Assembly (NCBI GenBank): GCA_965227295.1
Contig: OZ245742.1
Location: 2,560,001-2,624,000, forward strand
DNA from: Leptonemataceae bacterium
GTDB lineage: Bacteria > Spirochaetota > Leptospiria > Leptospirales > Leptonemataceae
Direction: 5' to 3'
DNA: 64,000 bases
A program made the translations under genes and the position numbers. Numbering within the stretch: position 1 is the first letter of the stretch; every line of letters begins with the position of its first letter. Under the pieces are notes generated by a model that saw only the letters and a list, made by a program, of their open reading frames with translations, was not told the DNA's origin and did not search any database. Of the stretch, positions 8,220 to 48,132 are shown one piece after another.

Positions 8220-8329
8220 GCCGAATCTTACGATGGAATCAAGAGAGATCAAGCCGGCCGCCCTCGCTGTGAGTTAAGACCGTAGTTTTTTCTAAGCTCG
8301 TGTAAGATGATGAAACGATTCGCCCGTGA

Positions 8330-22074: not shown

Positions 22075-23472
22075 ATGAAAGTACATAAAGTCAGATCCGG
22101 CTACGACATCCCCCTCAAAGGACAACCTGATCCCTCCGCGGGCATTCAGGATGCTCCAAACCCGAAAACATACACAGTGCGGCCCGTCGAATTCGGCGCA
22201 CAGTTGAAACCGCGGCTCAAAGTTGAGACCGGCGACTCGGTGAAGATCGGCACCACGCTCTTCGTCGACAAACGCAATCCCGACGTATGCTACGCGAGTC
22301 CCGCCGCGGGAAAAATCACGGACATCCGGTACGGGCCGCGCCGTGTCATCGAAGCCATCGTCATCTCGCCGTCCGGTGAAGACGCCGAGCAGTTTCAGAA
22401 CTTTCGCTCGGGCGAAATCGCGAACCAGAAGCGCGATGATCTCGTGAAGCTGTTGCTTGAAGGCGGCATGTGGCCGTTTATTCGTCAGCGTCCGTACGAC
22501 ATCAACGCGAACCCGGAAGACACCCCGGCTTCCATCTTCGTGAACTGCATGGATACCGGTCCCCTGGCGCCCGATCCGGAAATCGCCCTGCGGGGCAAAC
22601 GTCCGGAGTTCGAAGCCGGCATTAATGCGCTGAAGGTTCTGGCCGGCGGGAATAAGATCCACGTCGTCATCAACGGCGGCAAGAAGCAAAGCCCCGACTC
22701 GGAGCAACTGTTCACTGGGCTCAGCGGCGTGGAGTACCACGCCTTCGCCGGCAAACACCCGGCCGGCCTGGTCGGCACGCACATCACCACCATCGATCCC
22801 ATCATCGGCTACGCGAACAACCGCAAGGTCATCTGGTATCTGAACGCCCGGGACGTAGTGAAACTCGGCAGTTTTCTTTTGGTAGGGCAGTATCCCACGG
22901 AAAACGTGATCGCGGTCGGCGGCCACGGTGTGAAAGCGGAGCGCCGGAAATACTTTCGCGTGCGTTCCGGCGCCGACATCGGCAGTCTGCTCGACGGTTA
23001 CCTTGAAGACGGCGAGCTGCGCATCATCAGCGGCAACGTGCTTACCGGTACGCAGATCAGCAAAGAAGAGGGCCTCGGCTTCTACGACAGCGTCATCACC
23101 GTCATTCCCGAGGGTCGCGAGCGACGCTTCATCGGCTGGATGCTGCCGGGCTTTTCGCGTTGGACCTGGTCCCGCGCCTACATGTCCGCGGCCGTCCCCG
23201 GTCGGCGCTACGCCATGGACACCAACAAGAACGGCGAAAAGCGCGCGTTCGTGAAGACCGGCGACTATCGCAAGGTCATGGGGATCGATGTGCTGCCGGA
23301 GTTCCTGGTCAAGGCCATTCTGGCCGAGGACATCGAACAAATGGAAGCCCTGGGCATTATGGAGTGTGCGCCGGAGGACTTCGCGCTGTGCGCGTACATC
23401 TGTCCGTCGAAGATCGAATTCACCGAGATCGTGCGCGACGGCCTGGAGATGATGCACAAAGAATTGGCCTGA
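22075..23472 (+). CDS. nqrA: Na+-translocating NADH:quinone reductase subunit A
   Basis: GYDIPLKG.P, RQRPY, GKHPAG, RIISGNVLTG, EDFALC.YICPSK. Confidence 0.95.
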   Translation: MKVHKVRSGYDIPLKGQPDPSAGIQDAPNPKTYTVRPVEFGAQLKPRLKVETGDSVKIGTTLFVDKRNPDVCYASPAAGKITDIRYGPRRVIEAIVISPSGEDAEQFQNFRSGEIANQKRDDLVKLLLEGGMWPFIRQRPYDINANPEDTPASIFVNCMDTGPLAPDPEIALRGKRPEFEAGINALKVLAGGNKIHVVINGGKKQSPDSEQLFTGLSGVEYHAFAGKHPAGLVGTHITTIDPIIGYANNRKVIWYLNARDVVKLGSFLLVGQYPTENVIAVGGHGVKAERRKYFRVRSGADIGSLLDGYLEDGELRIISGNVLTGTQISKEEGLGFYDSVITVIPEGRERRFIGWMLPGFSRWTWSRAYMSAAVPGRRYAMDTNKNGEKRAFVKTGDYRKVMGIDVLPEFLVKAILAEDIEQMEALGIMECAPEDFALCAYICPSKIEFTEIVRDGLEMMHKELA

Positions 23473-23561
23473 CGACGGCGCGCACCGCTCTATCGCACTA
23501 ACCTTTGTTCTTGAAAACTTAGCGGCCCCGGTCGCTTTCCGTTGAAATCAGAGAAACGAAC

Positions 23562-24800
23562 ATGAAGTTCCTACAGAAACAACTCGAAAAGATGGACCCG
23601 CTCTTCGAAAAGGGCGGCAAGCTCGAAAAACTCCATCCCCTCTGGGACGCCCAGAGCACATTCCTGTTTACCCCGAAAGAGGTCACCGAGAAGGGTCCGC
23701 ACGTCCGCGATTCCATCGATCTCAAGCGGGTCATGATCACCGTGGTCATGGCGCTCATCCCGGTGGTGCTGTTTTCTTTCTATAATACGGGCTACCAGAT
23801 GGCCCGGGCCTACGGCGTCGAAGCGAGCCTGCCCTGGTGGCAGATGTTTATCAACGGAGCCATCACGAACCTGCCGATCATTCTGGTCAGCTACGCCGTC
23901 GGCGGTCTCTGGGAAGGCCTCTTCGCAGTCATTCGCCGGCATAAGATCAGTGAGGGCTTTCTCGTAACGGGCATGCTCTTTCCGCTGACTCTGCCGGCCA
24001 CGATTCCGCTGTGGCAGGTGGCCGTGGGCGTAAGCTTCGGCGTTGTGATCGGCAAAGAGGTCTTCGGCGGCACCGGCATGAACATCCTCAACCCGGCGCT
24101 CACCGGGCGGGCCTTTCTGTTCTTCTCGTTTCCGAAAGACATCTCGGGCTCCGATGTCTGGATCAAACATTACAACCCGTCCGCGTTCCCGTACCTCGAT
24201 AACTTCCTGCTGTGGGATCCTTCCTGGAAACTCGTCGACGGTTACAGCGGGGCCACGGCGCTGCTCCAGGCGGCGTCCACCGGCGCGGCGCAAAAACCGG
24301 TCGATGTCCTTACGAGCGGAGGCTACGCCCACTTCGACTGGTGGAATCTGTTTGTAGGTCTGGTGCCCGGCAGTATGGGCGAAACCTCGGCTCTCGTGGC
24401 GCTGATCGGCGCGGCGATTCTGATCCTCACCGGCGTCGGTAGCTGGCAGATCATAACGAGCTGCATTCTCGGTGCGGCGGCCATGGCGGGTTTCATGGGC
24501 ATCTTTACGGACGTCGGCCTGCCGGCGGTGCCCTGGCACTACCATCTCGTGATGGGCGGCTTCATGTTCGGCGCGGTCTACATGGCCACCGATCCGGTGA
24601 GCGCGGCGCATTCGGGCATGGGCAAGTGGATCTACGGTTTCTTAATCGGCGTTCTGTGCATCTTAATCCGGGTGTGGAACCCGGCCTATCCCGAGGGCAT
24701 GATGCTCTCGATTCTCTTTATGAACATTTTCGCGCCGCTCATCGATCATTACGTGGTAAAGGCGAACATCAACCGGAGGCTCAAACGTGCAACGGGGTAA
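23562..24800 (+). CDS. nqrB: Na+-NQR subunit B
   Basis: HVRDSIDLKR, GKEVFGGTGMNILNPAL, FMN site SGAT, NPAYPEGMML. Confidence 0.96.
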   Translation: MKFLQKQLEKMDPLFEKGGKLEKLHPLWDAQSTFLFTPKEVTEKGPHVRDSIDLKRVMITVVMALIPVVLFSFYNTGYQMARAYGVEASLPWWQMFINGAITNLPIILVSYAVGGLWEGLFAVIRRHKISEGFLVTGMLFPLTLPATIPLWQVAVGVSFGVVIGKEVFGGTGMNILNPALTGRAFLFFSFPKDISGSDVWIKHYNPSAFPYLDNFLLWDPSWKLVDGYSGATALLQAASTGAAQKPVDVLTSGGYAHFDWWNLFVGLVPGSMGETSALVALIGAAILILTGVGSWQIITSCILGAAAMAGFMGIFTDVGLPAVPWHYHLVMGGFMFGAVYMATDPVSAAHSGMGKWIYGFLIGVLCILIRVWNPAYPEGMMLSILFMNIFAPLIDHYVVKANINRRLKRATG

Positions 24801-25680
24801 TGCTTATACATTCATCTTCGCGTTCATCGTCTGCATATGTTGCAGCGTGGCGCTGGCCTTCGCGGCCACCGGTCTGCGCGAAGCCCAGGACATCAGTGCG
24901 CGCCTGGACATCGTGAAGAACATCCTGCTCGTCGGCGGCTACGAACAAAAGGAACTCGATCGCATGGCCGCGGAGAGTCCGCAGCAGGTTCTGGAAATCT
25001 TCCGCAAAAACTTCGACGTCCGCCTCGTGAACGAGGACAAAGAGGAAGTGCCCCTGGAGTTTGTGAAGTCCGAGCTGAACAAGATCGGCTACCAGGACGA
25101 GCAGCTCGCCGCGATGCAGGCCTTTGAAATCGTCGACATCTTCAAAAGCAAGGTCAATCTTCTGGCGAAGGCAGCCGGTCAGTCCGTGGACGAGTACAAT
25201 CCCGGCCTCAGCCTCATCTACCTGCAGATGAGTTCGGGGGAAGGCGACGCGGAGCGAGAGGTCGTCGCTTACATTATTCCTGTCGAAGGTTACGGGCTGT
25301 GGGATATGGTCTATGCCTATCTGGCGCTTGAGGCCGACCTGGTCACAGTGAAGGATGTTGTGTTTTACTCTCATCAGGAGACGCCCGGTCTGGGCGGCGA
25401 AATCTCCACGAAGGCCTTCACCGATCAGTGGAAGGGCAAAAAGATCCTCGACGAGAACGGAGACCTTGTCAGTATCCAGGTGGTCAAGGGCGGCACGGAT
25501 GACGACAATCCCCACGGCGTCGACGGCATCAGCGGCGGCACCATCACCGGTGACAGCGTTACGAAGTTCTTGAAAGAGGACCTCGAACGCTACAACGCAT
25601 ACTTCAAGACCATCCGCGGCGGCGATAAAACCGGCGCGACGCAAGATCAGGCGGCCTTTGCCGCAGGAGAACGAAAATGA
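24787..25680 (+). CDS. nqrC: Na+-NQR subunit C
   Basis: GYGLW, ETPGLGGEI, FMN site DGISGGTIT. Confidence 0.93.
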   Translation: MQRGNAYTFIFAFIVCICCSVALAFAATGLREAQDISARLDIVKNILLVGGYEQKELDRMAAESPQQVLEIFRKNFDVRLVNEDKEEVPLEFVKSELNKIGYQDEQLAAMQAFEIVDIFKSKVNLLAKAAGQSVDEYNPGLSLIYLQMSSGEGDAEREVVAYIIPVEGYGLWDMVYAYLALEADLVTVKDVVFYSHQETPGLGGEISTKAFTDQWKGKKILDENGDLVSIQVVKGGTDDDNPHGVDGISGGTITGDSVTKFLKEDLERYNAYFKTIRGGDKTGATQDQAAFAAGERK

Positions 25681-26357
25681 GCGATACGGCAACAGTACCC
25701 GCGCCCCGGCAGGCGCAAAACGAACGCAAGCCGCTCTTCGGCAAGAAAGAGCGCTCCATCGTCCGCGATCCGTTGTGGGACAACAACCCCATCACGCTGC
25801 AGGTTCTCGGCATCTGTTCGGCCCTCGCCGTAACAACGCAGATGTCCACGACCATCGTCATGTGCCTGGCGGTGATCGCGGTGCTCTCGCTCTCGAACAC
25901 GATCGTTTCGTTTCTGCGGGACTTCATTCCGTCGAAGATTCGCATCATCGTCATGCTGGCAGTGATCTCATCGCTCGTGATCCTGGTGGACCAGATCCTT
26001 AAGGCCTACCTCTTCGAAATGTCGAAGCAGCTCTCGGTTTTCGTCGGTCTGATCATTACGAACTGCATCATCCTGGGCCGCGCCGAGGGTTTCGCCATGG
26101 CGAACAAACCCTGGCCGTCGTTCCTCGACGGAGTCGGCAACGCGTTGGGTTACTCGATCATCCTCATTCTTGTGGCCACCGGTCGCGAGATCCTGGGGAA
26201 CGGCACCTGGTTCGGCCTGGCTGTAATCCCGCAGTTTTTCTACGACATCGGTTACCAGAACATCGGCCTCATGAAGTTGCCCCCGGGCGCCTTCCTTATC
26301 GTAGGGCTTATCATCTGGGTCCAGCGTTCCATCTCGAAACAGTACGAAACGCACTAA
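25677..26357 (+). CDS. nqrD: Na+-NQR subunit D
   Basis: NNPITLQVLGICSALAVT, SVFVGLIITNCIILGRAE. Confidence 0.96.
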   Translation: MSDTATVPAPRQAQNERKPLFGKKERSIVRDPLWDNNPITLQVLGICSALAVTTQMSTTIVMCLAVIAVLSLSNTIVSFLRDFIPSKIRIIVMLAVISSLVILVDQILKAYLFEMSKQLSVFVGLIITNCIILGRAEGFAMANKPWPSFLDGVGNALGYSIILILVATGREILGNGTWFGLAVIPQFFYDIGYQNIGLMKLPPGAFLIVGLIIWVQRSISKQYETH

Positions 26358-26390
26358 TCTACGTTACCTGAATACTAAGAGATAAACCTT

Positions 26391-27002
26391 ATGAATCTCG
26401 TAAACATCGCAGTCCAATCCGTCTTTGTCGAAAACATCCTGCTGGCGTACTTCCTCGGGATGTGTTCATTCCTGGCGGTCTCCAAGAAGATCGACACCGC
26501 CGTCGGCCTCGGCTTTGCCGTGGTCTTCGTGAACGGGATCACCGCCCCGGTGAACTGGCTCATCAATCATTATCTGCTGAACGACGGCGCCCTGGCCTGG
26601 GTCGGCCTGGCCACGGTGGATCTTTCGTTCCTGCGCTTCATCACCTATATCGCGGTAATCGCGGCCATGGTGCAGCTCGTGGAGATGATCATCGACAAGT
26701 TCTCTCCGACGCTCTACGCGTCGCTGGGTATCTTTCTGCCGCTGATCGCGGTGAACTGCGCCATCCTGGGGACCTCGCTCTTCATGGATACCAAAGGCTA
26801 CAACCTGGCCGAGTCCACCGTCTTCGGCCTTTCTTCCGGCCTCGGCTGGATGCTGGCCATCGTGGCGCTGGCGGCCATTCGCACGCGCATTCGTTATTCG
26901 GACGTGCCCCCGGGCCTGCGCGGCCTCGGCATGGCGTTCATTCTCACGGGACTCATGGCGATCGGTTTCATGTGTTTCGTGGGCATCAAAATGACCGAAT
27001 GA
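26391..27002 (+). CDS. nqrE: Na+-NQR subunit E
   Basis: [34 protein letters not shown]. Confidence 0.96.
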
Positions 27003-27050
27003 CGGACACTTTCGAAACGGCCTTTTCTTAACTATTACGGAGCAAATATT

Positions 27051-28283
27051 ATGAGCGGAATCGCAATCGTAGGACTCAGTGTTGCCGTCTTCACGTTCGT
27101 GATCATGGGACTGGTGACCATCATTACCCAGGCGGAGAAGCGCCTGGTCGCCCAGGGCGACGTGAAGATCAACATCAACGGCGACGAGGAGAAGTCCATC
27201 ACGGCGCCCGCCGGATCCACACTGCTGACGACGCTCTCGAACTCCGGCCTGTATCTGCCGTCGGCCTGCGGCGGCGGCGGGACCTGCGCCATGTGCAAGT
27301 GCCAGATCTTCGACGGCGCCGGGGACATTCTGCCCACCGAAGCGGGGCACTTTACCCGCAAAGAAATCAAGGAAAACTGGCGCCTGTCGTGCCAGGTAAA
27401 GGTCAAGGGCGATCTGGAAATCGGCGTTCCGGAAGAGGTGCTCAGCATTCAGAAGTTCACCTGTACCGTGCGCAGCAATCACAACGTCGCGACGTTCATC
27501 AAAGAGCTCGTCCTGGACATCGACGACGGCAAGGAAATGGACTTCGAGGCCGGCGGTTACATTCAGATCTACGTCCCCGAGTACGACATCGACTTCAAGA
27601 ACTTCGACATCGAAAAAGAGTACCACCCGGACTGGGATCAGTTTAAGTTGTGGGACCTGAAAGCGCGCAACGACGAGGAGATCTTCCGCGCCTATTCCAT
27701 GGCGAACCACCCGGCCGAGGGCAACATCGTTATGCTGAACATCCGCATCGCCACGCCGCCGCGGGGCATGGACGTGCCTCCGGGGATTTGTTCCAGCTAC
27801 GTGTTCAATCTGAAACCCGGCGACAAAGTCGAGGTGAGCGGACCCTACGGTGAGTTCTTCGCCAAAGAAACCGAGCGGGAAATGTGCTACATCGGCGGTG
27901 GTGCCGGCATGGCCCCGTTGCGCTCGCACATCTTCGATCTTTTCCATACCAGGAAAACGAACCGCAAGGTCACCTACTGGTACGGCGCACGCTCGCTGCG
28001 GGAGATGTTCTACGAGGACGACTTCCGCAAAATCGAAAAGGAATTCGACAACTTCAAGTTCCACGTGGCGCTCTCGGACCCGCTGCCCGAGGACAACTGG
28101 GAAGGCCCCACGGGCTTCATTCACCAGGTGGTCCTGGAAAACTATCTCAAGAACCATCCCGATCCCACGGAGATCGAGTACTACCTGTGCGGCCCGCCGC
28201 TCATGCTCGACGCCGTGCAAAAAATGCTCTACGACCTGGGCGTGGAGCGCGAAATGATCGACTTCGACGACTTCGGTAGTTGA
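27051..28283 (+). CDS. nqrF: Na+-NQR subunit F
   Basis: [12 protein letters not shown] 2Fe-2S motif, [26 protein letters not shown]. Confidence 0.97.
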
Positions 28284-28305
28284 GGGAGAATAGGAATCAG
28301 GACTA

Positions 28306-28417
28306 ACACCGAGGACCGAGAGACCGAGGTTTCCTGGAAGGGCATTCTTATTAGCAAGGCCGCGCGCAAGCTATGAATGCTCTCCGTTTTCGCCTCGCAA
28401 GACTCGGTCCTCGGAGT
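28306..28417. repeat. CCGAG-armed hairpin element, copy 5 (overlaps the apbE start)
   Basis: acaccgaggaccgagagaccgag ... ctcgcaagactcggtcctcggagt. Confidence 0.75.
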
Positions 28418-29488
28418 CTATTCCTTCTTTTCCTCGCGTGCGCGTTCGCCTGCAAGCCCGCGGACGAATCGCTTACGTTGAAGGGCTACGCCCTCGGCAC
28501 CACCTATACCGTTAAGATCTACCCGCACGAAGTTAGCGAAGACGAAGCCTCGCTGCCTCCCGAAGACGAACTGCGTTCCGAAATCGAAGACGTCATTGCC
28601 GGCATGAACGCGGCCATGTCCAACTGGCATACGGACAGCGAAATCTCGCGATTCAATGCCCTGGAGGCCCCGGCAACCATCGAAATCTCGCCGGCCTTCG
28701 CGCGAGTCTTGGAAGCATCGCAGGAGATGCACCGACGTTCCGGCGGCGCTTTTGATCCGGGCCGCTCCAGGCTCTTTGATCTGTGGGGTTTCGGCGCCGA
28801 ACAAAAAGAGGACGCCGTGCGCAGCGTTCCGGACCAGGCGGACATCGAACGCCTGTTGCAAAACAGCGGCCTCGCATACGTGCGTCTGGAAATCAAACCG
28901 CATCCGGAAAATCTCGACAGTCACAGCCTCATCACGCTGCACAAAGAGCGCGACGATGCCGGGTTAAACGTGAGTGCTCTCGCGAAAGGTTACGCCGTGG
29001 ACCTGGTATTCGAGCGACTGCAGGAACACGGCGCCCGGTACATGATGGTGGAAATCGGCGGCGAGGTTCGTACCGGACCGGCGCATCCGCAGCGTGGAGG
29101 TTTTCACATCGGCATCGACGAGCCGCGGTACGACGGTCGCCGTTCGCTCTACGAGGTCCTCGAAGTTTCGGACGCGGCCGTGGCGACGAGCGGCAACTAT
29201 CGCAACTACTTTCGCGGCGACGACGGCCGGTTGTATTCGCACATCCTGGATCCCCGCACCGGTCGGCCGTCGGAGAGCGATGTCGTGTCGGCCACGGTGA
29301 TCGGCCCGGCCTGCATGATCGCCGACGCCCTGGCAACGACGTTGCTGGTGCTGAGCGAAGACGAAGGACTGGCCTTGATCGAAGCGATGCCGGAGTACGA
29401 GGCGTTGTTGTTAATCAAAGACGGCGAGAAGTTACGGGAAGTGCAAACGGCGGGGATGGCGCGGTTCAGGAATGGCTCGGGTCCGTAG
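28373..29488 (+). CDS. apbE: FAD:protein FMN transferase (lipoprotein)
   Basis: SEISRFN, AKGYAVD, VEIGGE, ATSGNYRNYF, HILDPRTG, ADALAT. Confidence 0.95.
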   Translation: MNALRFRLARLGPRSLFLLFLACAFACKPADESLTLKGYALGTTYTVKIYPHEVSEDEASLPPEDELRSEIEDVIAGMNAAMSNWHTDSEISRFNALEAPATIEISPAFARVLEASQEMHRRSGGAFDPGRSRLFDLWGFGAEQKEDAVRSVPDQADIERLLQNSGLAYVRLEIKPHPENLDSHSLITLHKERDDAGLNVSALAKGYAVDLVFERLQEHGARYMMVEIGGEVRTGPAHPQRGGFHIGIDEPRYDGRRSLYEVLEVSDAAVATSGNYRNYFRGDDGRLYSHILDPRTGRPSESDVVSATVIGPACMIADALATTLLVLSEDEGLALIEAMPEYEALLLIKDGEKLREVQTAGMARFRNGSGP

Positions 29489-29792
29489 TTCCGGTGTGCC
29501 CTGAAGCTTGAGGTAAGTGCCCGGGAGGGAAAGTTAAGGGAAGTATGGGTACGGCTGGTTCCAGCCGGCGAACGGAGGTCGTGCCGGGGGACGTGGTAAG
29601 GCGGACCGGAACGGCGTCTTCGCCGCAAGAGACGCTGCCGAAGCTGAGTCGCTCTCCCGGCGTCCGGGTCGATGTGGACAATCTTAACAAAACGAAAAGC
29701 TACAACTCCCGCGAGCCGTAGCAAAATGATTCCCTTTACAATTCCTGAGCCAGGCTCTGTAGCTTCACAGCTCCTGCCATGATTCCGAGGGC
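29489..29792 (+). ncRNA. Unrecognised structured non-coding element, copy A
   Basis: Homologous to 31989-32281 at an exact 2500-nt offset; core 29543-29630 is 77/88 identical; conserved hairpins with G-U pairs on the + strand. Confidence 0.55.
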
Positions 29793-29804
29793 TCCCCGGG
29801 ATCG

Positions 29805-30056
29805 TCACATCAACCGCGACTTTTGCAGTGCCTGCTGTAGCTTGCTGTAATGCTGCGGCTCTTCTTGTTCGGCGTCGCACTTGTTCGGATCGCCGCCGCA
29901 GATGCTGCACGATTCGTCGCCGCCGCGGGTGATGGTCCCGTTCGCGGCGAGGCCGCCGCAGGAACCCTTCACGGGCCGCCCGAACATGGCGCCGATCGCG
30001 ATGCCGGCCATGCAAATGCCGAAGAGGGCGAGGGTGAGCAGCAGAATCTCGGTCAT
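29805..30056 (-). CDS. nqrM: Na+-NQR maturation factor (DUF539)
   Basis: TM helix then KGSCGGL...CSICG...C. Confidence 0.85.
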   Translation of the reverse strand: MTEILLLTLALFGICMAGIAIGAMFGRPVKGSCGGLAANGTITRGGDESCSICGGDPNKCDAEQEEPQHYSKLQQALQKSRLM

Positions 30057-30163
30057 TCTAATAAGTTAGTAAGATCGCGCGGAAAATCAAGTCTTTTGCC
30101 GCGCCGTGCAAAAGGAGCGGGCGCCGATTTTTCGGCCGCCCGCTCCACGTTATACGCGGGATC

Positions 30164-31384
30164 TCAGTCCGGCGTTTCGCTGATCACCCCGCGACCCACG
30201 GTGCGGCCGCCCTCACGGAATGCGAAGGCGAGGCCCGCCTCGATGGCCACGGCGGTTTCCAGGTCCACATCGATCAGAATCGATTCGCCCGGGAGCGCCA
30301 TGTCGATGCCTTCCGGCAACTGCACGGAGCCGGTGACGTTCGTCGTGCGGAAGTAGAACTGCGGCCGGTAACCGTTGAAGAAGGGCGTATGTCGTCCGCC
30401 TTCCTCTTTGCCCAGAACGTAAACTTCCGCTCGAAAGAACTTACGGGCCCGCACGGAACCGGGCAGGGCCACGACCTGGCCGCGCCGCAGCGAATCTTTC
30501 TTTACACCGCGGAGCAGCAGACCCACGCTCTCGCCGGCCCGGGCCGTATCGCTTTCCTCGTGAAAGCTCTCGATGGCCGTCACCGTCGTGCGCCCGGTCT
30601 CACCGAAGCCGACGATCTCCACCTCGCGCCCGCTTTGCAAACGGCCGCGTTCCACACGACCGGTCACCACGGTGCCGCGACCCGGAATCGTAAGCACGCC
30701 TTCGATGGCCATCAGAAAGTCGCGGTCCAGGTCCCGCACGGGATCCGGCACGTGAGCTTCCAGGGCTTCGAGCAAGCGCACGATCGCGGCGAAACCCAGC
30801 TCGCTTTCCGGGGCCTCGCCGGCCGCCTCACGAACGGCGAGCAACGCCGAGCCGTAGACAATGGGCGTGTCCGCGGCGAAACCGTACTGCTCGAGCAACT
30901 CACGAATCTCTTCGCTCACGAGATCGATCAATTCCTCGCGCTCGTCCGGGTGAATCGCGTCGGCCTTGTTCAGAAAGACGACGAGATTCCGCACGCCCAC
31001 CTGACGCGCTAACAGCACATGCTCGCGAGTTTGCGGCATAGAACCGTCGTCCGCGGAAACCACCACGATGGCGGCGTCGAGGGACTGAGCACCGGCGACC
31101 ATGTTCTTTACGTAGTCGGCGTGGCCCGGGCAATCGACGTGGGCGTAGATTCTACGCGCGGTTTCGTAGCGCTGATGCGATACGTTGATCGTTACGCCCT
31201 TCGCACGTTCTTCCGGCGCCGAGTCGATGTCCTCGTAACGCACGGCGCGGTTCAGGCCGCCGTAGAGTTTCGCGGTGACCTGGGTTAGAGCGGCACTCAG
31301 CGTGGTCTTGCCGTGATCCACGTGTCCGATCGTACCCACGTTCACTCGAATCTTGTTTTCGTTTTTCAGAGCTTTGATGCTCAT
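30164..31384 (-). CDS. tuf: Elongation factor Tu paralogue (divergent, stand-alone)
   Basis: [74 protein letters not shown] before ATG 31384. Confidence 0.93.
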
Positions 31385-31445
31385 CGTTTTCACCTCGTTA
31401 TAGTTTGATCCGCCTGAGCGGATGGCGTGGGTTGTCACGGGCACG

Positions 31446-31479
31446 AAAAAACCCCCTCGCACCGGATGGTGGAGGGGGC
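31446..31479 (-). terminator. Intrinsic terminator (attenuator) in the tuf leader
   Basis: Minus-strand RNA GCCCCCUCCACC-AUCC-GGUG-C-GAGGGGG-UUUUUU, about 60 nt upstream of the tuf ATG. Confidence 0.85.
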
Positions 31480-31536
31480 TTCGCGCAGGTACTATGACGT
31501 TATGATGCTACAAACCTACAATCGCGCAAGCCCTCC
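31471..31536 (-). promoter_or_regulatory. Antiterminator hairpin of the tuf leader
   Basis: GGAGGGCUUGCGCGA (31536-31522) pairs with UGCGCGAAGCCCCCUCC (31487-31471), sequestering the terminator 5' arm. Confidence 0.75.
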
Positions 31537-31608
31537 CCGCGGGTCGCCTTGTTCCTGTTGTTCGCCGCTTATGCCGGCGAAAATCTTGTTGAAAATTCCG
31601 GAGAACAT
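31516..31608 (-). CDS. Putative tuf leader peptide (30 aa) MFSGIFNKIFAGISGEQQEQGDPRGGLARL
   Basis: ATG 31608 to TAG 31516; last codons cover the antiterminator 5' arm; no obvious Shine-Dalgarno. Confidence 0.55.
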   Translation of the reverse strand: MFSGIFNKIFAGISGEQQEQGDPRGGLARL

Positions 31609-31622
31609 CGATTAGATTTGAC

Positions 31623-31677
31623 GAAGAAAACGCGCACCTTCGTGAAACTTTTTGTGAAAATCGTGCGCGTTCTTTTC
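31623..31677. promoter_or_regulatory. Inverted repeat between divergent genes (possible operator)
   Basis: gaagaaaacgcgcac-N25-gtgcgcgttcttttc (13/15 match); spacer carries two gtgaaa direct repeats. Confidence 0.45.
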
Positions 31678-31688
31678 GGAGTAACTGC

Positions 31689-31988
31689 ATGCTGCCGCCC
31701 ACATTCATCGCTTCGCTCATTGCCATCGGCGTTTTGCTGGTGTTGATCCTCACGTACGTTCTGGTCTCGCGGGAAGTGGAACGCCGCCGCCTCGATCGAG
31801 AGCGGGCTATCGCCGCGCAGCGTAAGAAAGAGCTCCTGGCCACCGAAGTCGACGAGCCCGCCGTGCCCGCGTCCATTTCCAAAAGCGAACACCAGGAAAT
31901 GATCGAAAACGCCCAGGCCATGGTCAAAGAAGACCCGGAGCGCGCGGCGAAACTCGTGCGTCACTGGCTCGACGACGGGGATCGGTAG
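31689..31988 (+). CDS. Small membrane protein resembling the FliF C-terminal cytoplasmic tail
   Basis: One TM helix, charged linker, then AMVKEDPERAAKLVRHWL. Confidence 0.7.
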   Translation: MLPPTFIASLIAIGVLLVLILTYVLVSREVERRRLDRERAIAAQRKKELLATEVDEPAVPASISKSEHQEMIENAQAMVKEDPERAAKLVRHWLDDGDR

Positions 31989-32281
31989 ATCGAGCACGCC
32001 CCGAATCGTGGATTAAGTAGCGGCCAGTGTACATTAAGCCTTGTATAGGTACGGCTGATTCCAGCTAACGTACGGAGGTCATGCCGGGGTCCATGGTAAG
32101 GCGGACCGGAACGGCGTCCTCGCCGCAAGAAAGGCTTCGGTAACTGAGTCACAAACCAACGTCCGGGTCGATGCGGACGATGTTAGCAAAACGAAATTCC
32201 ACAACTCCCGCTCAGCTGTAGCCAAACCCACCCCTTCACCATTGCGCAACCTACCCTGTGTGTCTCACGGCAAACGGGGCG
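31989..32281 (+). ncRNA. Unrecognised structured non-coding element, copy B
   Basis: Closing stem cgccccg (31997-32003) / cggggcg (32275-32281); hairpins gctg-attc-cagc, ggtc..gacc, cgtccg-N8-cggacg; stops in all three + frames. Confidence 0.55.
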
Positions 32282-32318
32282 AACCACAGCTCTTGAACGA
32301 CCGGAAACGTTTTATTCG

Positions 32319-32470
32319 TTCGAACACGCCCCGAATCGTGGTGTAAGTGGCGGCCAGTGTACATTAAGCCTGGTATGGGTACGGCTGGTTCCAGCTAACG
32401 TACGGAGGTCATGCCGGGGTCCATGGTAAGGCGGACCGGAACGGCGTCTTCATTGCAAGAAACGTTGCGG
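32319..32470 (+). ncRNA. Unrecognised structured non-coding element, copy C (5' half; 3' half divergent)
   Basis: 129/140 identical to copy B at a 330-nt offset; lies just upstream of the vWA gene. Confidence 0.5.
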
Positions 32471-32573
32471 TGGTTCGCGGGAGCACCCGGGTCACCCGGC
32501 CCACGCTCACATAAATCGAACAAATCTCCGCTATCCGCGGTCCAATCGAGGCAATTCACCGGAGGTTTATCTC

Positions 32574-34274
32574 ATGCAATCCAATCACTCCGCGCGGCCG
32601 TCGATCCTGGCAGGTTCCGCGCTCCTGATCCTTGCGATCTTTGCGGCGTGCAATACCGCGGATCGCAGCGGCGCTGCCGAAACCCGCCGCGATCCCACGA
32701 CGGTCATTCCGTCCCGGTCCGAGCGCGCAGAATACTTTCACGGCGACGGAGTTACGCCGCAATCTGAATATGAGGCCCCCGAACCCGCGCGCAAACAAAA
32801 CGTCCAGGACGGCCAGGCCGTACCGCCCACGGGTAGTGACGAAGGCGCCCTGCCGTTCAACACCGAGACTTACGATCGTATCTACGAAAACGACTTCCTG
32901 GGCGTACACCAGAATCCGCTCAGCACGTTTTCCATCGACGTCGACACCGCGAGCTACAGCATCACCCGGCGTTTTCTGAATCAGGGCAGCACCCCGCCGC
33001 CGGATGCCGTACGCATCGAAGAACTCATCAACTACTTCAACTACGACTACGCCGGCCCGCAGGGCGACGCCGATCCGTTCGCCGTGCACACCGAGGTTTC
33101 GGCCGCGCCCTGGAATCCGGAGCATCGTCTGTTGCACGTCGGCATCCAGGCGAAGCGTTTTGAACAAAAGGATCTGCCGCCGCGAAACCTGGTCTTCCTG
33201 CTCGATGTCTCGGGGTCCATGGATGCGTCGAACAAACTGCCGTTGCTCAAACGTTCCCTGCGCCTGCTGACGGAGCAGATGAGCGAAAAAGATCGGGTGG
33301 CCATCGTGGTCTATGCGGGCGCGAGCGGGGTGGTACTTGAACCCACGCGCGGCGATCAGCAAGAGAAGATCATGGACGCGTTCGAGAAACTTTCGGCCGG
33401 CGGATCCACGAACGGCGGCGAAGGCATTGAGCTGGCGTACAAACTGGCTCGCGCTAACTTTCACCACGAGGGCATTAACCGTGTGATCCTGGCCACCGAC
33501 GGCGACTTCAACGTCGGCACCACGAATCAGGGCGATCTCATTCGGTTGATCGAAAAGGAACGCGAGAGCGGCGTTTTTTTAACGGTGCTCGGCTTCGGCA
33601 TGGGCAATTACAAGGACAGCACCATGGAAAAGCTCGCCGACAAGGGCAACGGTAACTACGCCTACATCGACACCGTTGCCGAAGCGCGGAAGACCCTCGT
33701 AAACGAAGCCGGCGGCACACTCATTCCCGTGGCGAAAGACGTGAAGCTGCAGCTGGAATTCAACCCGCGCACCGTCGCGGCCTACCGATTGATCGGTTAC
33801 GAAAACCGCCTGCTGCGCGCCGAGGATTTCAACGATGATAAGAAAGACGCCGGCGAGATCGGCGCCGGCCACAGTGTAACGGCTCTCTACGAAATCGTTC
33901 CGGCCGGCAAAGAGGTGCCCACGGGCACGGTGGACCCGCTGAAGTACCAGACCACCGGCGATGCCACCGACGCCGCGAACTCGAACGAGCTTCTGACCGT
34001 GAAGATCCGCTACAAACAACCGCAGGGCAGCACGAGTAAGTTGCTGAGCTTCGCCGTAAGTGACGGTGAAAAAAAATTAGAGGAGACTTCGGATAACTAT
34101 CGCTTCAGCGCGGCGGTGGCGGCCTACGGCATGTTGCTCCGGGACTCGAAGCATCGCGGGGGAGCCGACTACGATCTGGTGCGCAAGCTCGCCCAGGGCA
34201 GTCTGGGCGAGGACCCGCACGGATACCGGGCCGAGTTCTTACGCCTGGCAGCCATGGCGAAAGACATGCGCTGA
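32574..34274 (+). CDS. vWA domain lipoprotein, YfbK-like
   Basis: FAA-C lipobox; STFSIDVDTASY, LLDVSGSM (MIDAS), LATDGDFNVG, YRLIGYENR. Confidence 0.92.
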   Translation: MQSNHSARPSILAGSALLILAIFAACNTADRSGAAETRRDPTTVIPSRSERAEYFHGDGVTPQSEYEAPEPARKQNVQDGQAVPPTGSDEGALPFNTETYDRIYENDFLGVHQNPLSTFSIDVDTASYSITRRFLNQGSTPPPDAVRIEELINYFNYDYAGPQGDADPFAVHTEVSAAPWNPEHRLLHVGIQAKRFEQKDLPPRNLVFLLDVSGSMDASNKLPLLKRSLRLLTEQMSEKDRVAIVVYAGASGVVLEPTRGDQQEKIMDAFEKLSAGGSTNGGEGIELAYKLARANFHHEGINRVILATDGDFNVGTTNQGDLIRLIEKERESGVFLTVLGFGMGNYKDSTMEKLADKGNGNYAYIDTVAEARKTLVNEAGGTLIPVAKDVKLQLEFNPRTVAAYRLIGYENRLLRAEDFNDDKKDAGEIGAGHSVTALYEIVPAGKEVPTGTVDPLKYQTTGDATDAANSNELLTVKIRYKQPQGSTSKLLSFAVSDGEKKLEETSDNYRFSAAVAAYGMLLRDSKHRGGADYDLVRKLAQGSLGEDPHGYRAEFLRLAAMAKDMR

Positions 34275-34295
34275 ACTCTCCCGGACAGTCGTCCG

Positions 34296-34324
34296 AAAAA
34301 GCCCCGGTTCGCCGGGGCCTTTTC
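34296..34324 (+). terminator. Intrinsic terminator (bidirectional type)
   Basis: aaaaa-gccccgg-ttcg-ccggggc-ctttt. Confidence 0.85.
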
Positions 34325-34329
34325 GTGGT

Positions 34330-34361
34330 TTTAAATTGACCGGTGAGTCGGTCAATTTAAA
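34330..34361. promoter_or_regulatory. Probable TetR operator
   Basis: Perfect 13-bp inverted repeat tttaaattgaccg-gtgagt-cggtcaatttaaa abutting the TetR GTG. Confidence 0.8.
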
Positions 34362-34988
34362 GTGAACGCAGCGAGGGAGCCGTTGCCGAAAATCGTCGAT
34401 AAAGAAGCCCGCCGCCGGGATTTCGCCCGGGCCGCACTGCTTGAGTTTCAGCAGCGCGGTTATCCGGAAACGAAGATCGAAGACATTGCTGCCCGGGCCG
34501 GAGCGGGCAAGGGGACGGTCTATGAGTACTTTCGCGACGGCAAGCGCGAGATCGTGCTGTACCTGTTCGAAGACTTCTTTGCCCGGGCCGTGGACGGAGC
34601 CCGCAACGCTCCGATCTTCGCCGACGATCCGGCCGAAGATTGCGTGGCCCTGCTCATGAGTCTTGCCAGGCCGCCGGCGGAACTGTTGCCGCTGATCCCG
34701 GTGTACTTCGAGATCTGGGCATCCCGCCGGCCCGGCAGCGCCCTCGGTCTCGACAAACGCATGGCCGGCGTCTTCGACGAACTGGCAGCCTTTGTGGCGC
34801 AGCGCCTCGGACGACGCCACGGCCCCGGCGGCCGTCCCCGGGCGGCGGATCGCAGTTTCGCCCGCATGATCGTCGCCTGCATCGACGGCATGATTCTGCA
34901 CCGGGCGATCTTTCACCGGGATCAGGATGTGTATAGTAAGGAACTACGCGGTTTCGAAGCGATGCTGCGCGCCTGGCTGGGCCTTTAG
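34362..34988 (+). CDS. TetR/AcrR family transcriptional regulator
   Basis: IEDIAARAGAGKGTVYEYF HTH; start could be TTG 34383. Confidence 0.9.
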   Translation: MNAAREPLPKIVDKEARRRDFARAALLEFQQRGYPETKIEDIAARAGAGKGTVYEYFRDGKREIVLYLFEDFFARAVDGARNAPIFADDPAEDCVALLMSLARPPAELLPLIPVYFEIWASRRPGSALGLDKRMAGVFDELAAFVAQRLGRRHGPGGRPRAADRSFARMIVACIDGMILHRAIFHRDQDVYSKELRGFEAMLRAWLGL

Positions 34989-35009
34989 TATCTACTCAAG
35001 GAATGTTAC

Positions 35010-35948
35010 ATGAGCACACGTAGAACGGAAAGCGAAGAGAACGATGCGCGCCGCATCCTGGTGGCCGGCGGCACCGGTTATCTGGGGCGGTACGTCCTGG
35101 CCGAGGCCCGGCGTCGCGGATGGTTCGTGCGCGCCCTGGTCCGGCCCGGCAAGAGCGAACAACTGAAAGACCTCGATGTCGACGAGATCGTTGAGGCCGA
35201 AGTGACCCGACCGGAAAGCCTGAAGGGAATTTGCAACGGCATGGACTGTGTGTTTTCATCGGTAGGTATCACGCGTCAGAAGGACGGACTGCGTTACATG
35301 GACGTGGACTACGGCGCGAACCGGAACCTGCTCGACGCTGCGATCCTGGCCGGGGTTCGGCGCTTTGTCTATGTTTCCGTGGCCATCAGCGAAGCCGTGC
35401 GTGAACTGCGCATTATTCAGGCGAAAGAGCGCTTTGTCCGCGAGTTGAATCACAGCAGCATCGACTCGGCGGTGATTCGCCCCTCGGGTTTCTTTTCGGA
35501 TATGAAGGACATCCTGGATATGGCACGCGGCGGGCGGGTCTATCTTTTCGGTGACGGTTCGGCCCGGGTGAATCCCATCCACGGCGCCGACCTGGCCGAG
35601 GTCTGTCTGGACGCCTGCGAGCCGCATAAACATGTCATGGGGGCGGCTCTACCCGTGCACGAAGAGATTCCGGTAGGCGGTCCGCAGGTGCTGTCGCAAA
35701 ACGAAATCGCCGCCGCCGCGTTTCATGCCCTGCGCCTGGACCAGGGTTCGTCGGCGGGGCGGGTGACGCATCTGCCGGCCTGGAGTGCTGCGGCGATGGT
35801 GGCGGTACTCAAACGACTGCCCGAGCGGCTGGCGGGGGCCCTCGAGTTTATCCTGGCCGCCATGACGGCGGACCTGGTGGTGCCGGCCTACGGAAAGCGG
35901 AAGCTCGCGGATTTTTACGGCGAGCAGGCTCAGCCCTTCAACTGTTGA
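35010..35948 (+). CDS. NAD(P)-binding SDR/NmrA-like oxidoreductase
   Basis: VAGGTGYLG, IRPSGFF, NPIHGADLA. Confidence 0.9.
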   Translation: MSTRRTESEENDARRILVAGGTGYLGRYVLAEARRRGWFVRALVRPGKSEQLKDLDVDEIVEAEVTRPESLKGICNGMDCVFSSVGITRQKDGLRYMDVDYGANRNLLDAAILAGVRRFVYVSVAISEAVRELRIIQAKERFVRELNHSSIDSAVIRPSGFFSDMKDILDMARGGRVYLFGDGSARVNPIHGADLAEVCLDACEPHKHVMGAALPVHEEIPVGGPQVLSQNEIAAAAFHALRLDQGSSAGRVTHLPAWSAAAMVAVLKRLPERLAGALEFILAAMTADLVVPAYGKRKLADFYGEQAQPFNC

Positions 35949-46089: not shown

Positions 46090-46117
46090 TTGACGATCAT
46101 TCGCATCTTACTAACTT
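46090..46117 (+). promoter_or_regulatory. Putative sigma70 promoter of the ilvB leader
   Basis: TTGACG-N16-TAACTT. Confidence 0.5.
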
Positions 46118-46129
46118 CGCCTCAATCTC

Positions 46130-46285
46130 ATGCGCGCTCTCACGCACAATACCCTTGAGCAGTCGTTCGCCGGTCTCCTGCACTGGCTAACCGGCGTCGT
46201 AGTGTACGTCGTCAATGTGATGATGGTGGTGGTCGTGGTAGTAGAGAACCACACGCCGATTTCACCGACCCCGGGTAATACGTAG
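46130..46285 (+). CDS. ilvB leader peptide (51 aa, 12 Val, 5 Leu)
   Basis: MRALTHNTLEQSFAGLLHWLTGVVVYVVNVMMVVVVVVENHTPISPTPGNT*. Confidence 0.8.
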   Translation: MRALTHNTLEQSFAGLLHWLTGVVVYVVNVMMVVVVVVENHTPISPTPGNT

Positions 46286-46308
46286 AGCGCAGCACAGCAA
46301 CATGCACG

Positions 46309-46343
46309 AAACCCCGTCCGGTGAAAACCTGGCGGGGTTTTTT
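46309..46343 (+). terminator. Attenuator terminator upstream of ilvB
   Basis: aaccccg...cggggtttttt hairpin with U-tract; rival pairing ttcaccg (46261-46267) / cggtgaa (46319-46325). Confidence 0.85.
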
Positions 46344-46377
46344 CGTTTATGAGCACCTCAAAACCTGGAGCCACCCA

Positions 46378-48132
46378 ATGAACGCAGACCAAGAGCCTGA
46401 CATACGAACCGATCGCGAAACGAGCGGGATGAACGGAGCGCAGTTCCTCGTGAAATTTCTGGAACGCCGGATTCGCGATGATGTGATCTTCGGTTACCCC
46501 GGCGGTGCCGCGCTGCCGATCTACGACGCCCTTTCTCGAAGCAGCATTCGGCACGTGCTCGTGCGTCACGAGCAGGGCGCCGCGTTTATGGCCCAGGGGC
46601 GGGCCCGCGTAACCGGCCGGGCCGCGCTTTGCCTCGCGAGTTCCGGTCCCGGCGTTACGAACTTGATCACCGGTGTGGCCGACGCCATGGCCGATTCGAT
46701 TCCCCTGGTCGTCGTCACGGCCCAGGTTTCCACCGCGCTCATCGGTACGGACGCCTTTCAGGAGATCGACGCTCACGGCCTGGCCCTGCCGATCACGAAG
46801 GCCTGCTTCGCCGTGCGTTCGACCGCCGATTTACTCGAAGCCGTACCCGCGGCCTTTGCCCTGGCCGAGGGTGGTCGGCCGGGTCCGGTGTGGATCGATC
46901 TGCCGAAAGACGTGCAGACGGCGGAAATCGCCCTGTCGCAAGCGCAGCGAGCGTTCGCTGAGTTAGCTTCAGTTAAAGTTAGCAGAGTGCAGGCTGATGG
47001 GACGGCCGCGAGACTTCGGGAAGCAGCCGCCCTGATCGCGACGGCGGAGCGGCCGGTCCTGTACGCCGGCGGCGGGGTGATCCATGCCGGGGCGAGCGAG
47101 GCCCTCCGTCGCCTGGCGCGCAGAAATTCCATTCCCGTTACCACGACGCTCATGGGCCTCGGCGCCTATCCGGCCGGGGACGAACTCTTTCTGGGCATGC
47201 CCGGCATGCACGGGGCGCGGTCGACGAACATGATCCTCGAAGAATGTGACGTGCTGATCGGCGTCGGCGTGCGCTTCGATGATCGCGCCACGGGTAAAGT
47301 GGCGGAGTTCTGTCCGGGGGCGAAGATCATCCACGCCGACATCGACGCCGCGGAGCCGGGCAAAATCAAACGCCCGGACATTGCTCTGGTCTGCGATGCG
47401 GGAGATTTTCTTAACATGTTAAATAGAGAAATCCCCGCGGACCGGCGACCGGGCTGGCGGGAACGGGTCCGCGCCTGGAAAGAGCGGGCCGCGTTACCGG
47501 TGCCGTCGGGCACGGATCTGCGTGATCCGGCTCGACTCCTGGGCAACATTGCAGCGGCCGTCGAAGCACGCGCGATCATAACGACGGATGTCGGTCAGCA
47601 TCAGATGTGGGCGGCGCAGTACTTCCCGTTCACGGAACCGCGCACCTGGCTGACCTCGGGCGGTCTGGGGACGATGGGCTTCGGGTTGCCGGCGGCGATC
47701 GGTGCGGCGACGGCCCGCCCGAATCGAACCGTCGTCTGCTTAAGTGGTGACGGATCGATCTTAATGAATCTACAGGAACTGGCGACGCTGCGCGACCTGG
47801 GCGCGAACGTGAAGATCGTGGTCTTCGACAACGGCGGCCTGGGCCTGGTGCGCCAGCAGCAGGAGCTGTTCTACGCGGAAAATTATTACGCCTCGCAATG
47901 GGAACCCGGCCCGCCGGATCTCTGTACGATTGCCCTCGGCTTCGGCATTCCGTCGCTGGACCTTCAGGAGTTCGACGATAGGGCGGCGGAGGTTCTGAAC
48001 GACGCGCTCACGAACCCCGGGCCGGTGTTGATCCGCGCGCCCATCTTCGCGGACGCGAACGTGTATCCGATGGTGCCGCCGGGCAAAGCGAATCGAGAGA
48101 TGATCGAGGGGCGCAGCGTGCCGGTGTTGTGA
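46378..48132 (+). CDS. ilvB: Acetolactate synthase large subunit
   Basis: FGYPGGA.LP.YD, RHEQGA, GPG.TN, RFDDR.TG, DVGQHQMW, SGGLGTMG, GDGS..MN.QEL; GGAG RBS. Confidence 0.95.
   Translation: MNADQEPDIRTDRETSGMNGAQFLVKFLERRIRDDVIFGYPGGAALPIYDALSRSSIRHVLVRHEQGAAFMAQGRARVTGRAALCLASSGPGVTNLITGVADAMADSIPLVVVTAQVSTALIGTDAFQEIDAHGLALPITKACFAVRSTADLLEAVPAAFALAEGGRPGPVWIDLPKDVQTAEIALSQAQRAFAELASVKVSRVQADGTAARLREAAALIATAERPVLYAGGGVIHAGASEALRRLARRNSIPVTTTLMGLGAYPAGDELFLGMPGMHGARSTNMILEECDVLIGVGVRFDDRATGKVAEFCPGAKIIHADIDAAEPGKIKRPDIALVCDAGDFLNMLNREIPADRRPGWRERVRAWKERAALPVPSGTDLRDPARLLGNIAAAVEARAIITTDVGQHQMWAAQYFPFTEPRTWLTSGGLGTMGFGLPAAIGAATARPNRTVVCLSGDGSILMNLQELATLRDLGANVKIVVFDNGGLGLVRQQQELFYAENYYASQWEPGPPDLCTIALGFGIPSLDLQEFDDRAAEVLNDALTNPGPVLIRAPIFADANVYPMVPPGKANREMIEGRSVPVL

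Follow-up and report, generated by a model that had tools for sequence, protein, structure and literature searches.

Ribosome-mediated attenuation of transcription is familiar from amino-acid operons and from a handful of genes that respond to antibiotics. The described system that comes closest to the one reported here is the rli80-hflXr leader of Listeria monocytogenes. According to the available text on it, the translation GTPase paralogue HflXr (lmo0762) lies behind a 14-codon open reading frame (ORF), a terminator, an antiterminator and an anti-antiterminator (PMC6310831). The ORF has the macrolide-arrest motif RLR, induction by lincomycin and erythromycin was shown experimentally, and rli80 is a constitutively transcribed small RNA, as the same text states (PMC6310831). 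Here we describe the leader of tuf, a divergent gene for elongation factor Tu (EF-Tu), in a Leptonemataceae bacterium. The whole stretch of DNA that was analysed, called the window below, is 64,000 nucleotides (nt) long (contig OZ245742.1 of assembly GCA_965227295.1, positions 2,560,001 to 2,624,000), and all coordinates refer to it. A first-pass annotation had noted a 30-codon upstream ORF (uORF) and a strong terminator on the minus strand in front of tuf, and had read them as a transcription attenuator that senses ribosomes. Folding and a simple ribosome model suggest that the leader is a plausible member of the ribosome-mediated attenuator class, closest in kind to rli80-hflXr.

Like rli80-hflXr, the tuf leader combines a small ORF with a terminator, an antiterminator and an anti-antiterminator before the gene for what in Listeria is, and here may be, a second, specialised translation GTPase, and in both a stalled ribosome would favour readthrough. 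As far as the available text on the Listeria leader goes, the two differ in ORF length (30 against 14 codons) and in the regulated gene (EF-Tu, not HflX). No RLR motif was recognised in the tuf leader, there is no sequence similarity between the two, and the tuf leader is known by computation alone.

Ribosome-mediated transcription attenuators also control vmlR (PMC9226507), bmrCD (PMC4191407) and msrD (10.1101/2021.11.29.470318), and the toiL uORF regulates topAI (PMC12121999), as described in the accessible portions of these papers. Like the leader proposed here, they sense slowed ribosomes generally and control genes for translation or drug tolerance. As the same portions present them, they belong to Firmicutes or Escherichia coli and have demonstrated inducers, and none controls tuf. 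The classical trp, his and ilv attenuators have a run of codons for an amino acid of their own pathway, whereas the tuf uORF has none. To our knowledge, the regulation of topAI does not rely on an intrinsic terminator.

In its available text, a survey of premature terminators mentions tuf solely as a distal gene in the rpsL operon, and it treats the leader of that operon as one of the ribosomal-protein type (PMC2965389). No leader-peptide attenuator for tuf turned up in the literature searched, mostly titles and the beginnings of abstracts, which is no proof of absence.

A terminator and an antiterminator in the tuf leader

An intrinsic terminator lies inside the 5′ leader, directly upstream of tuf, and ends no other gene (Table 1). 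The first-pass annotation had put a terminator with six U residues (U6) about 60 nt before tuf, and we located its last U 62 nt 5′ of the tuf ATG (31384). The nearest minus-strand gene upstream, which codes for a STAS protein, ends at 35930 and leaves about 4.3 kb without a minus-strand gene. The gene-like ORFs from 31689 to 35948 are all on the plus strand and code for a 99-amino-acid (99-aa) protein, a YfbK-like VWA protein, a TetR regulator and a NAD-binding protein. Since there is no upstream minus-strand gene for the terminator to end, it must be part of the tuf leader or of a short RNA.

Two minus-strand ORFs (31508..31927 and 31569..31997) were considered as genes ended by this terminator and were rejected. 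Their G+C contents at the three codon positions (0.45/0.61/0.61 and 0.65/0.42/0.62) are not gene-like. The overlapping plus-strand ORF of the 99-aa protein shows the genomic codon-position pattern (0.70/0.38/0.77) and has a conserved relative. The G+C content of the window is 60.4%.

Table 1. Features of the tuf locus and of the ilv leader in the window (strand: +, plus; -, minus;., not assigned).
Feature	Coordinates	Strand	Basis or detail
Divergent EF-Tu gene (tuf), 406 aa, candidate regulated gene	30164..31384	-	Pfam and TIGR00485
Intrinsic terminator directly 3′ of the tuf stop codon	30110..30146	-	Hairpin and U-run
Shine-Dalgarno-like GAGGTG, 6 nt 5′ of the tuf ATG (31384)	31391..31396	-	Sequence
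6-bp hairpin between terminator and tuf ribosome-binding site	31408..31423	-	Folding
Intrinsic terminator of the leader	31441..31486	-	-32.0 kcal/mol including lower stem to 31441
U6 tract of the terminator	31451..31446	-	Sequence
Region 4, terminator 3′ arm	31463..31452	-	Sequence, folding
Terminator loop	31467..31464	-	Sequence
Region 3, terminator 5′ arm	31486..31468	-	Sequence, folding
Inner hairpin within the antiterminator helix, with the uORF stop codon	31487..31522	-	Folding
Region 2, antiterminator 5′ arm, uORF codons 24-29, ends 4 nt before the stop codon	31523..31538	-	Folding
7-bp hairpin within the uORF, codons 10-16	31561..31581	-	7 pairs, 5 of them G-C; -10.6 kcal/mol
Region 1, uORF codons 1-3, weak anti-antiterminator	31600..31606	-	Folding
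30-codon uORF, candidate leader peptide, ATG 31608..31606, TAG 31518..31516	31516..31608	-	ORF listing and translation
16-nt inverted repeat, arms 31622-31637 and 31663-31678, 88% complementary, 25-nt spacer	31622..31678	.	Repeat scan
Divergent gene for the 99-aa membrane-anchored protein, one transmembrane helix, shares the control region	31689..31988	+	ORF, codon G+C, relative
Apparent ilv-type leader-peptide attenuator before the acetolactate synthase gene	46130-46345	+	Terminator scan and ORF

Nascent RNA was folded with its 3′ end at 31466, before the 3′ arm of the terminator, and with 5′ ends at 31690, 31640, 31625 or 31608. The minimum-energy fold contained the antiterminator helix between regions 2 and 3 (31538..31523 paired with 31486..31471) for 4 of the 4 ends. 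The claim that the last uORF codons form the 5′ arm of an antiterminator was borne out in these folds, all of which paired codons 24–29 with the 5′ arm of the terminator. Once the 3′ arm was added, the terminator displaced the 2:3 helix.

The first-pass annotation had also proposed to compare the folding energies of the two conformers. These are nearly equal, with -30.1 kcal/mol for the antiterminator segment (31540..31466) against -32.0 kcal/mol for the terminator. The two structures share region 3 and are mutually exclusive. In the leader from 31608 to 31441, the terminator conformer has -64.5 kcal/mol; when the 3′ arm is kept single-stranded, the best conformer reaches -47.1 kcal/mol. The whole leader is more stable than 200 of 200 shuffles (z = -3.5). 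In folds with the terminator, and in those that stop short of region 3, region 1 is paired with the G-run of region 2. This 1:2 pairing does not outcompete 2:3 after region 3 has emerged.

Pairing between the terminator 5′ arm and the preceding 121 nt adds -18.1 kcal/mol to the stability of the fold. Within these 121 nt, the arm pairs best with the final part of the uORF, 4 nt short of the stop codon. When the upstream part was shuffled with dinucleotides preserved, the mean was -9.2 (standard deviation 3.4), and the native value was reached in 9 of 1000 shuffles. With plain duplex energy, it was reached in 10 of 1000. As natural controls, we used 1500 20-mers of the window with 14–16 G+C, each with its own upstream 121 nt. 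Their mean was -9.9, and -18.1 was reached by 21 of the 1500 and by 2 of the 332 that had at least 9 C. The complementarity of regions 2 and 3 is thus about a 1-in-100 event by chance.

Predicted effect of a ribosome on the uORF

The 30-codon uORF is present as first described, from ATG to TAG, and its translation equals the peptide quoted in the first-pass annotation. The 7-bp hairpin at 31561-31581 that had been noted within it was found again independently (-10.6 kcal/mol), and it could possibly serve as an RNA polymerase pause hairpin.

For each codon of the uORF, a 30-nt ribosome footprint (-14 to +15 around the first base in the P site) was masked and base-pair probabilities were computed. 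In nascent RNA to 31466, the expected number of 2:3 pairs was 12.3 without a ribosome and 12.0–12.3 with codons 1–19 in the P site. The number dropped to 10.1 and 8.2 at codons 20 and 21, and to 0–0.2 at codons 22–30. In this model, the uORF is placed so that a ribosome at its end would mask region 2, while a ribosome held earlier would leave region 2 free. Since region 1 fails to outcompete the 2:3 helix, readthrough would be the default without translation on thermodynamic grounds, and termination would need a ribosome at the end of the uORF.

The proposed mechanism would run as follows. RNA polymerase would first transcribe the 30-codon uORF and would then go on through regions 3 and 4 of the strong terminator, in this order. 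If the last nine or so uORF codons are free of ribosomes as region 3 emerges, regions 2 and 3 would pair, the terminator would come too late and tuf would be transcribed (ON). If a ribosome follows close behind the polymerase and occupies codons 22–30 or the stop codon, region 2 would be masked. The 3:4 hairpin with its U6 tract would then form, and transcription would end 62 nt before tuf (OFF). The element would report whether translation keeps pace with transcription, and EF-Tu would be raised when elongation or initiation is slow, whatever the cause. This mechanism includes leader transcription from upstream of the AUG, translation of the uORF, a kinetic choice between the two structures and translation stress as the physiological signal, all of which we infer.

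If the proposal is true, it would link the translation rate directly to the supply of an alternative EF-Tu and would extend this attenuator class to a poorly sampled lineage. The leader would also be a compact, sequence-defined sensor of transcription-translation coupling.

An ilv leader in the same window

About 15 kb from the tuf leader, the window holds a second leader, which from its sequence reads as a textbook Val-rich ilv leader-peptide attenuator. Its ORF (46130..46285, 51 codons) has 12 Val within a 16-residue stretch, and its terminator (46317-46345, plus strand) has a U-run of 6. The listed ORF of the gene that follows (46321..48132) begins inside the terminator, and the true start of acetolactate synthase is probably the ATG at 46378, which has GGAG upstream. 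With such an attenuator in the window, the organism very probably uses transcription-translation coupling of this kind.

The two leaders have the same order of parts: a leader ORF, an antiterminator arm at the 3′ end of the ORF, a terminator with a U-run of 6 and the gene. Both terminators are built with a CGAA...UUUCG lower stem before the U-run, and neither ORF has a Shine-Dalgarno core. The spacing from stop codon to terminator is ∼20–32 nt for ilv and ∼30 nt for tuf, by the choice of where the lower stem starts. In contrast to the 12 Val of the ilv leader, the tuf uORF has no run of cognate codons. The stabilisation by the antiterminator is about twice as strong for tuf (-18.1 kcal/mol) as for ilv (-8.4 to -9.9 kcal/mol). 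Function thus does not depend on a high score in the stabilisation test, and the antiterminator of tuf stands out for its strength. Homology of the two leaders was considered and rejected. They share only a 13-nt identity at the tail of the terminator, and 4 of 300 shuffles score as high.

Evidence against the attenuator and alternative explanations

Several results weigh against a ribosome-read attenuator, and those on the uORF are given first. Regulatory codons or a defined arrest motif, the feature of classical attenuators, were not found in it. No residue of the peptide is repeated more than twice in a row, in agreement with the first-pass annotation, which had seen no single-amino-acid run, and no known arrest motif (RLR or similar) was recognised. 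The codon adaptation of the uORF is 0.49, compared with a gene mean of 0.71 and a mean of 0.38 for open +1 frames. Values as low as this were found in 3.5% of 289 in-frame windows and in 91% of 100 open +1-frame windows. Rare codons in the uORF (ATA, GGA, CAA, CTT and CGA) are clustered in the part constrained by pairing, and they could equally reflect non-coding sequence or RNA-structure constraint.

The presence and placement of the uORF are only mildly improbable. When the 201-nt leader was shuffled, 511 of 5000 shuffles contained an ORF of 30 or more codons with an ATG start. An ORF of 15 or more codons with its stop at most 15 nt from the native one was present in 392 of 5000 when it had to start with ATG, and in 1172 of 5000 when GTG and TTG starts were allowed. 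The stretch upstream of the uORF is A/U-rich and has no GGAG, GAGG or AGGA core. The lack of a Shine-Dalgarno sequence means little here, since the core is present 4–18 nt before the listed (uncurated) start in just 10 of 33 window genes.

The promoter search and the equilibrium folds also go against the proposal. On the minus strand, no sigma70-like hexamer pair was found from 31800 to 31380 at 8/12 or 9/12 matches, and the loose pattern TTnnnn-N15-19-TAnnnT was not found from 31780 to 31380. The only -10-like hexamer upstream with 5 of 6 matches (31616..31611) ends 2 nt before the AUG of the uORF, so that its use would put the 5′ end of the transcript within the uORF. The region has a single sigma70-like match (31589-31618), on the plus strand, where it fits the divergent gene of the 99-aa protein. 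It overlaps the first uORF codons, and this stretch therefore has another reason to exist. In full-length RNA at equilibrium, the terminator form always wins, with 11.1 expected pairs. A switch would therefore have to act through kinetics, like the classical attenuators, and the upper part of the terminator stem is at no time kept from nucleating.

Comparison with other genomes brought up no orthologous leader, and hence no covariation or peptide conservation to draw on. The leader was found in 0 of 80 loci from a scan of genome contigs with the neighbouring YfbK-like protein as query, and none of the loci was syntenic. These loci, from many phyla and without the window's own genome among them, matched the query with 53–66% identity; the query is too widely conserved for synteny. 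They were searched by tblastn and blastn with the tuf protein, the 99-aa protein, NqrM, the uORF peptide, ApbE, the leader and an intergenic repeat described below. The matches were an unrelated EF-Tu in locus L075 (53.7%, ∼9 kb from the query match), a weak match in locus L039 and two chance DNA matches of 21–24 nt.

The original proposal of a ribosome-sensing attenuator was upheld in silico in its architecture and, by the footprint model, in its ON/OFF logic, whereas no recognisable promoter and no sensing codons or arrest motif were found to go with it. We think it probable that the leader contains a conditional terminator of some kind, with or without a role for the uORF. That the leader of the monocistronic, divergent tuf is a transcription attenuator read by the ribosome is a tentative reading, built on a single sequence and on computation, and to us falls somewhat short of an even chance. 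A conditional terminator could also work with the ORF incidental, if a ligand, an RNA-binding protein (possibly a translation factor), a tRNA or a small RNA acts on region 2. The evidence for terminator and antiterminator is independent of the ORF. The leader is more stable than all its shuffles, and the uORF itself is only mildly non-random; the -10-like hexamer could even put the transcription start inside it. We nevertheless consider regulation of this kind unlikely. The stop codon 4 nt after region 2 would be a coincidence, and no conserved core like a ligand pocket is definable from one sequence. Rfam 15 gave 0 matches at gathering score in the 64-kb window, and the leader matched no curated family of cis-regulatory RNA (riboswitches, T-box, ribosomal-protein leaders). 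At E up to 10, the region 29300-32700 gave one match at chance level, MicL (11.4 bits against a cutoff of 56), which lies on the terminator 3′ of tuf.

The leader could instead be the source of a stand-alone short RNA (∼160–190 nt, ending at 31446), or its terminator could be constitutive and leaky and keep tuf low, with no switching role for the 2:3 helix. Strong leader terminators do release stable short RNAs, of which rli80 is an example in the available text (PMC6310831), and the full-length equilibrium is always the terminator. A fixed hairpin of -32 kcal/mol with U6 and no recognisable promoter after it would, however, leave tuf nearly silent, and a complementarity at the ∼1% level would be left unexplained. 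We likewise give this explanation a low probability, and a short RNA is compatible with attenuation rather than exclusive of it. A chance or relic arrangement would mean that the 62 nt after the terminator hold an unrecognised promoter for tuf, used for example by an alternative sigma factor, and that the hairpin is only an insulator against upstream or divergent transcription. The promoters of this isolated lineage may not follow the usual patterns (the best non-self match of its acetolactate synthase is 58% identical), and sigma70 rules match nothing on the minus strand. But the only candidate in the 62 nt is TATAAC, 12 nt from the tuf ATG and 30 nt from the nearest -35-like hexamer, and a start there would leave almost no 5′ untranslated region. 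Nor is there an upstream minus-strand unit to insulate against for ∼4.3 kb. Such an arrangement appears quite improbable.

The divergent EF-Tu

Sequence comparison indicates that the product of 30164..31384 is EF-Tu rather than another translational GTPase. All three Pfam EF-Tu domains are present in the 406-aa protein. It passes TIGR00485, the NCBIfam equivalog for EF-Tu, narrowly (548.8 bits against a cutoff of 522.4). Its G-domain motifs are invariant in an alignment with its closest relative and 13 diverse EF-Tu proteins.

That relative (P0002) was found among 5.8 billion protein clusters and is 88% identical, whereas all other non-self relatives are at most 62% identical. In the same alignment, 35 columns that are invariant across the 13 EF-Tu proteins are changed in the window EF-Tu. 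In P0002, 32 of the 35 are changed too, mostly to the same residue. The comparison points to a conserved, distinct EF-Tu type, and we flag this small subfamily with its pocket changes as biochemically interesting.

The changed positions in domain 2 include 229 (D to G), 231 (F to L), 273 (M to S), 275, 276, 278 and 286 (N to S). Residues were numbered by counting along the alignment to PDB chain 7bbn_A, which has the same residue range as the E. coli chain 1efc_A. Positions 229, 231, 273–278 and 286 are roughly what we take to be the pocket for the aminoacyl-tRNA end and for the thiopeptide GE2270A. Positions 120, 124, 160, 316, 329, 375 and 378, presumably the sites of kirromycin resistance, are canonical in the window EF-Tu by the same alignment. 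The pocket changes would fit thiopeptide insensitivity and altered substrate choice equally well.

The tuf gene sits isolated between nqrM and the gene of the small membrane protein, away from ribosomal-protein and tRNA genes, and no tRNA gene was found in the 64-kb window. Because of this isolated setting, a second, canonical tuf copy elsewhere in the genome is likely, though not proven. A terminator follows directly after the tuf stop codon (30146..30110), and tuf is therefore monocistronic. We considered tuf as a self-resistance gene beside an elfamycin cluster and rejected this, as Pfam found no polyketide synthase, nonribosomal peptide synthetase or thiopeptide genes among the 58 ORFs scanned. 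A link of the leader to EF-Tu inhibition or elfamycins is speculative, and the canonical residues at the presumed kirromycin sites lend it no direct support.

Streptomyces has a second EF-Tu. In the available text on it, EF-Tu3 (tuf3, 'actEF-Tu') is expressed under stress and resistant to EF-Tu inhibitors, and a reference cited there speaks of positive stringent control (PMC4342817). By our comparison with that text, it is a clearly divergent, non-converted second EF-Tu that is condition-specific, a description that would also suit the window tuf. The same available text mentions no leader-peptide attenuator for tuf3. The window EF-Tu is no closer to Streptomyces EF-Tu than to others, with 59% identity to the best plasmid-borne Streptomyces tuf.

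Taken in full, the proposal would be that a deep-branching bacterium keeps a divergent EF-Tu with a remodelled aminoacyl-binding pocket under a leader-peptide attenuator without cognate codons. The attenuator would gauge the pace of the ribosome against that of RNA polymerase, elongation capacity would feed back on an alternative EF-Tu (specialised or inhibitor-insensitive), and this would be the first such attenuator for tuf. We regard this full combination as rather doubtful.

Relatives and lineage

In the protein cluster search, the 99-aa neighbour had exactly one relative, P0242, with 84% identity. For P0002 and for P0242, the longest contig listed has 2356 bp, which suggests, but does not prove, that they share a contig and that the divergent pair of tuf and the 99-aa gene is conserved. 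In a plasmid collection, the protein search gave 1555 matching records, all below 60% identity. A search of the same collection for distant DNA matches to 29400-32600 gave 67 matching records; the 12 listed among them align to the coding part of tuf only, and none covers 80% of the query. No second copy of the tuf leader was found in the window.

The best non-self match of the window acetolactate synthase is 58% identical. Together with the low use of Shine-Dalgarno sequences, this indicates a poorly sampled, isolated lineage.

The divergent control region and other features of the window

In NCBIfam, the 99-aa protein weakly resembles the C-terminal end of FliF, with a score of 30.7 bits where the cutoff is 129.75. 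The inverted repeat at 31622-31678 lies between the uORF and the divergent gene of this protein and encloses two direct copies of TTTCAC. As RNA it would fold at -19.6 kcal/mol on the minus strand and at -23.4 kcal/mol on the plus strand, where the hairpin abuts the GGAG of the 99-aa gene. It is a candidate operator (as DNA) or a candidate hairpin in the 5′ untranslated region of the plus-strand gene.

An identical 11-nt motif, CTTACTAACTT, occurs at 30063-30073 (minus strand) and at 46107-46117 (plus strand), before the ATGs of nqrM and of the ilv leader. The distance to the ATG is 6 nt for nqrM and 12 nt for the ilv leader, and a TTGA-type hexamer lies 16 nt upstream of the TAACTT part of the motif. 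With at most 2 mismatches, CTTACTAACTT has 9 matches in the window, against 3.55 expected. The motif may be a -10 element of this lineage, and its place 6 nt before the ATG suggests that the nqrM mRNA is leaderless. It is absent from the tuf leader.

The nqrM gene (29805-30056, minus strand) codes for 83 aa and matches Pfam NqrM with 25.6 bits against a cutoff of 22. It is convergent to the nqrA-F / apbE operon (22075-29488, plus strand) and not in line with it.

Three copies of a repeat of 150–220 nt, 74–91% identical, are present on the plus strand at 29490-29712, 31990-32211 and 32320-32471. Two copies that are 2500 nt apart bracket the block of nqrM, tuf and the 99-aa gene, and the third lies upstream of the YfbK-like gene. 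The repeat has no Rfam match. Its plus-strand consensus fold has 43 pairs, 4 of them with changes on both sides, and three copies are too few to judge this. The copies may represent a structured RNA or a mobile intergenic repeat, or they may have been left behind when the tuf block arrived.

Two further genes of the window are on the minus strand. The one at 7395-8252 codes for a protein with an eCIS core domain. The one at 61380-63920 codes for 846 aa that include a phage tail collar domain, and internal repeats lie at 62327-63984.

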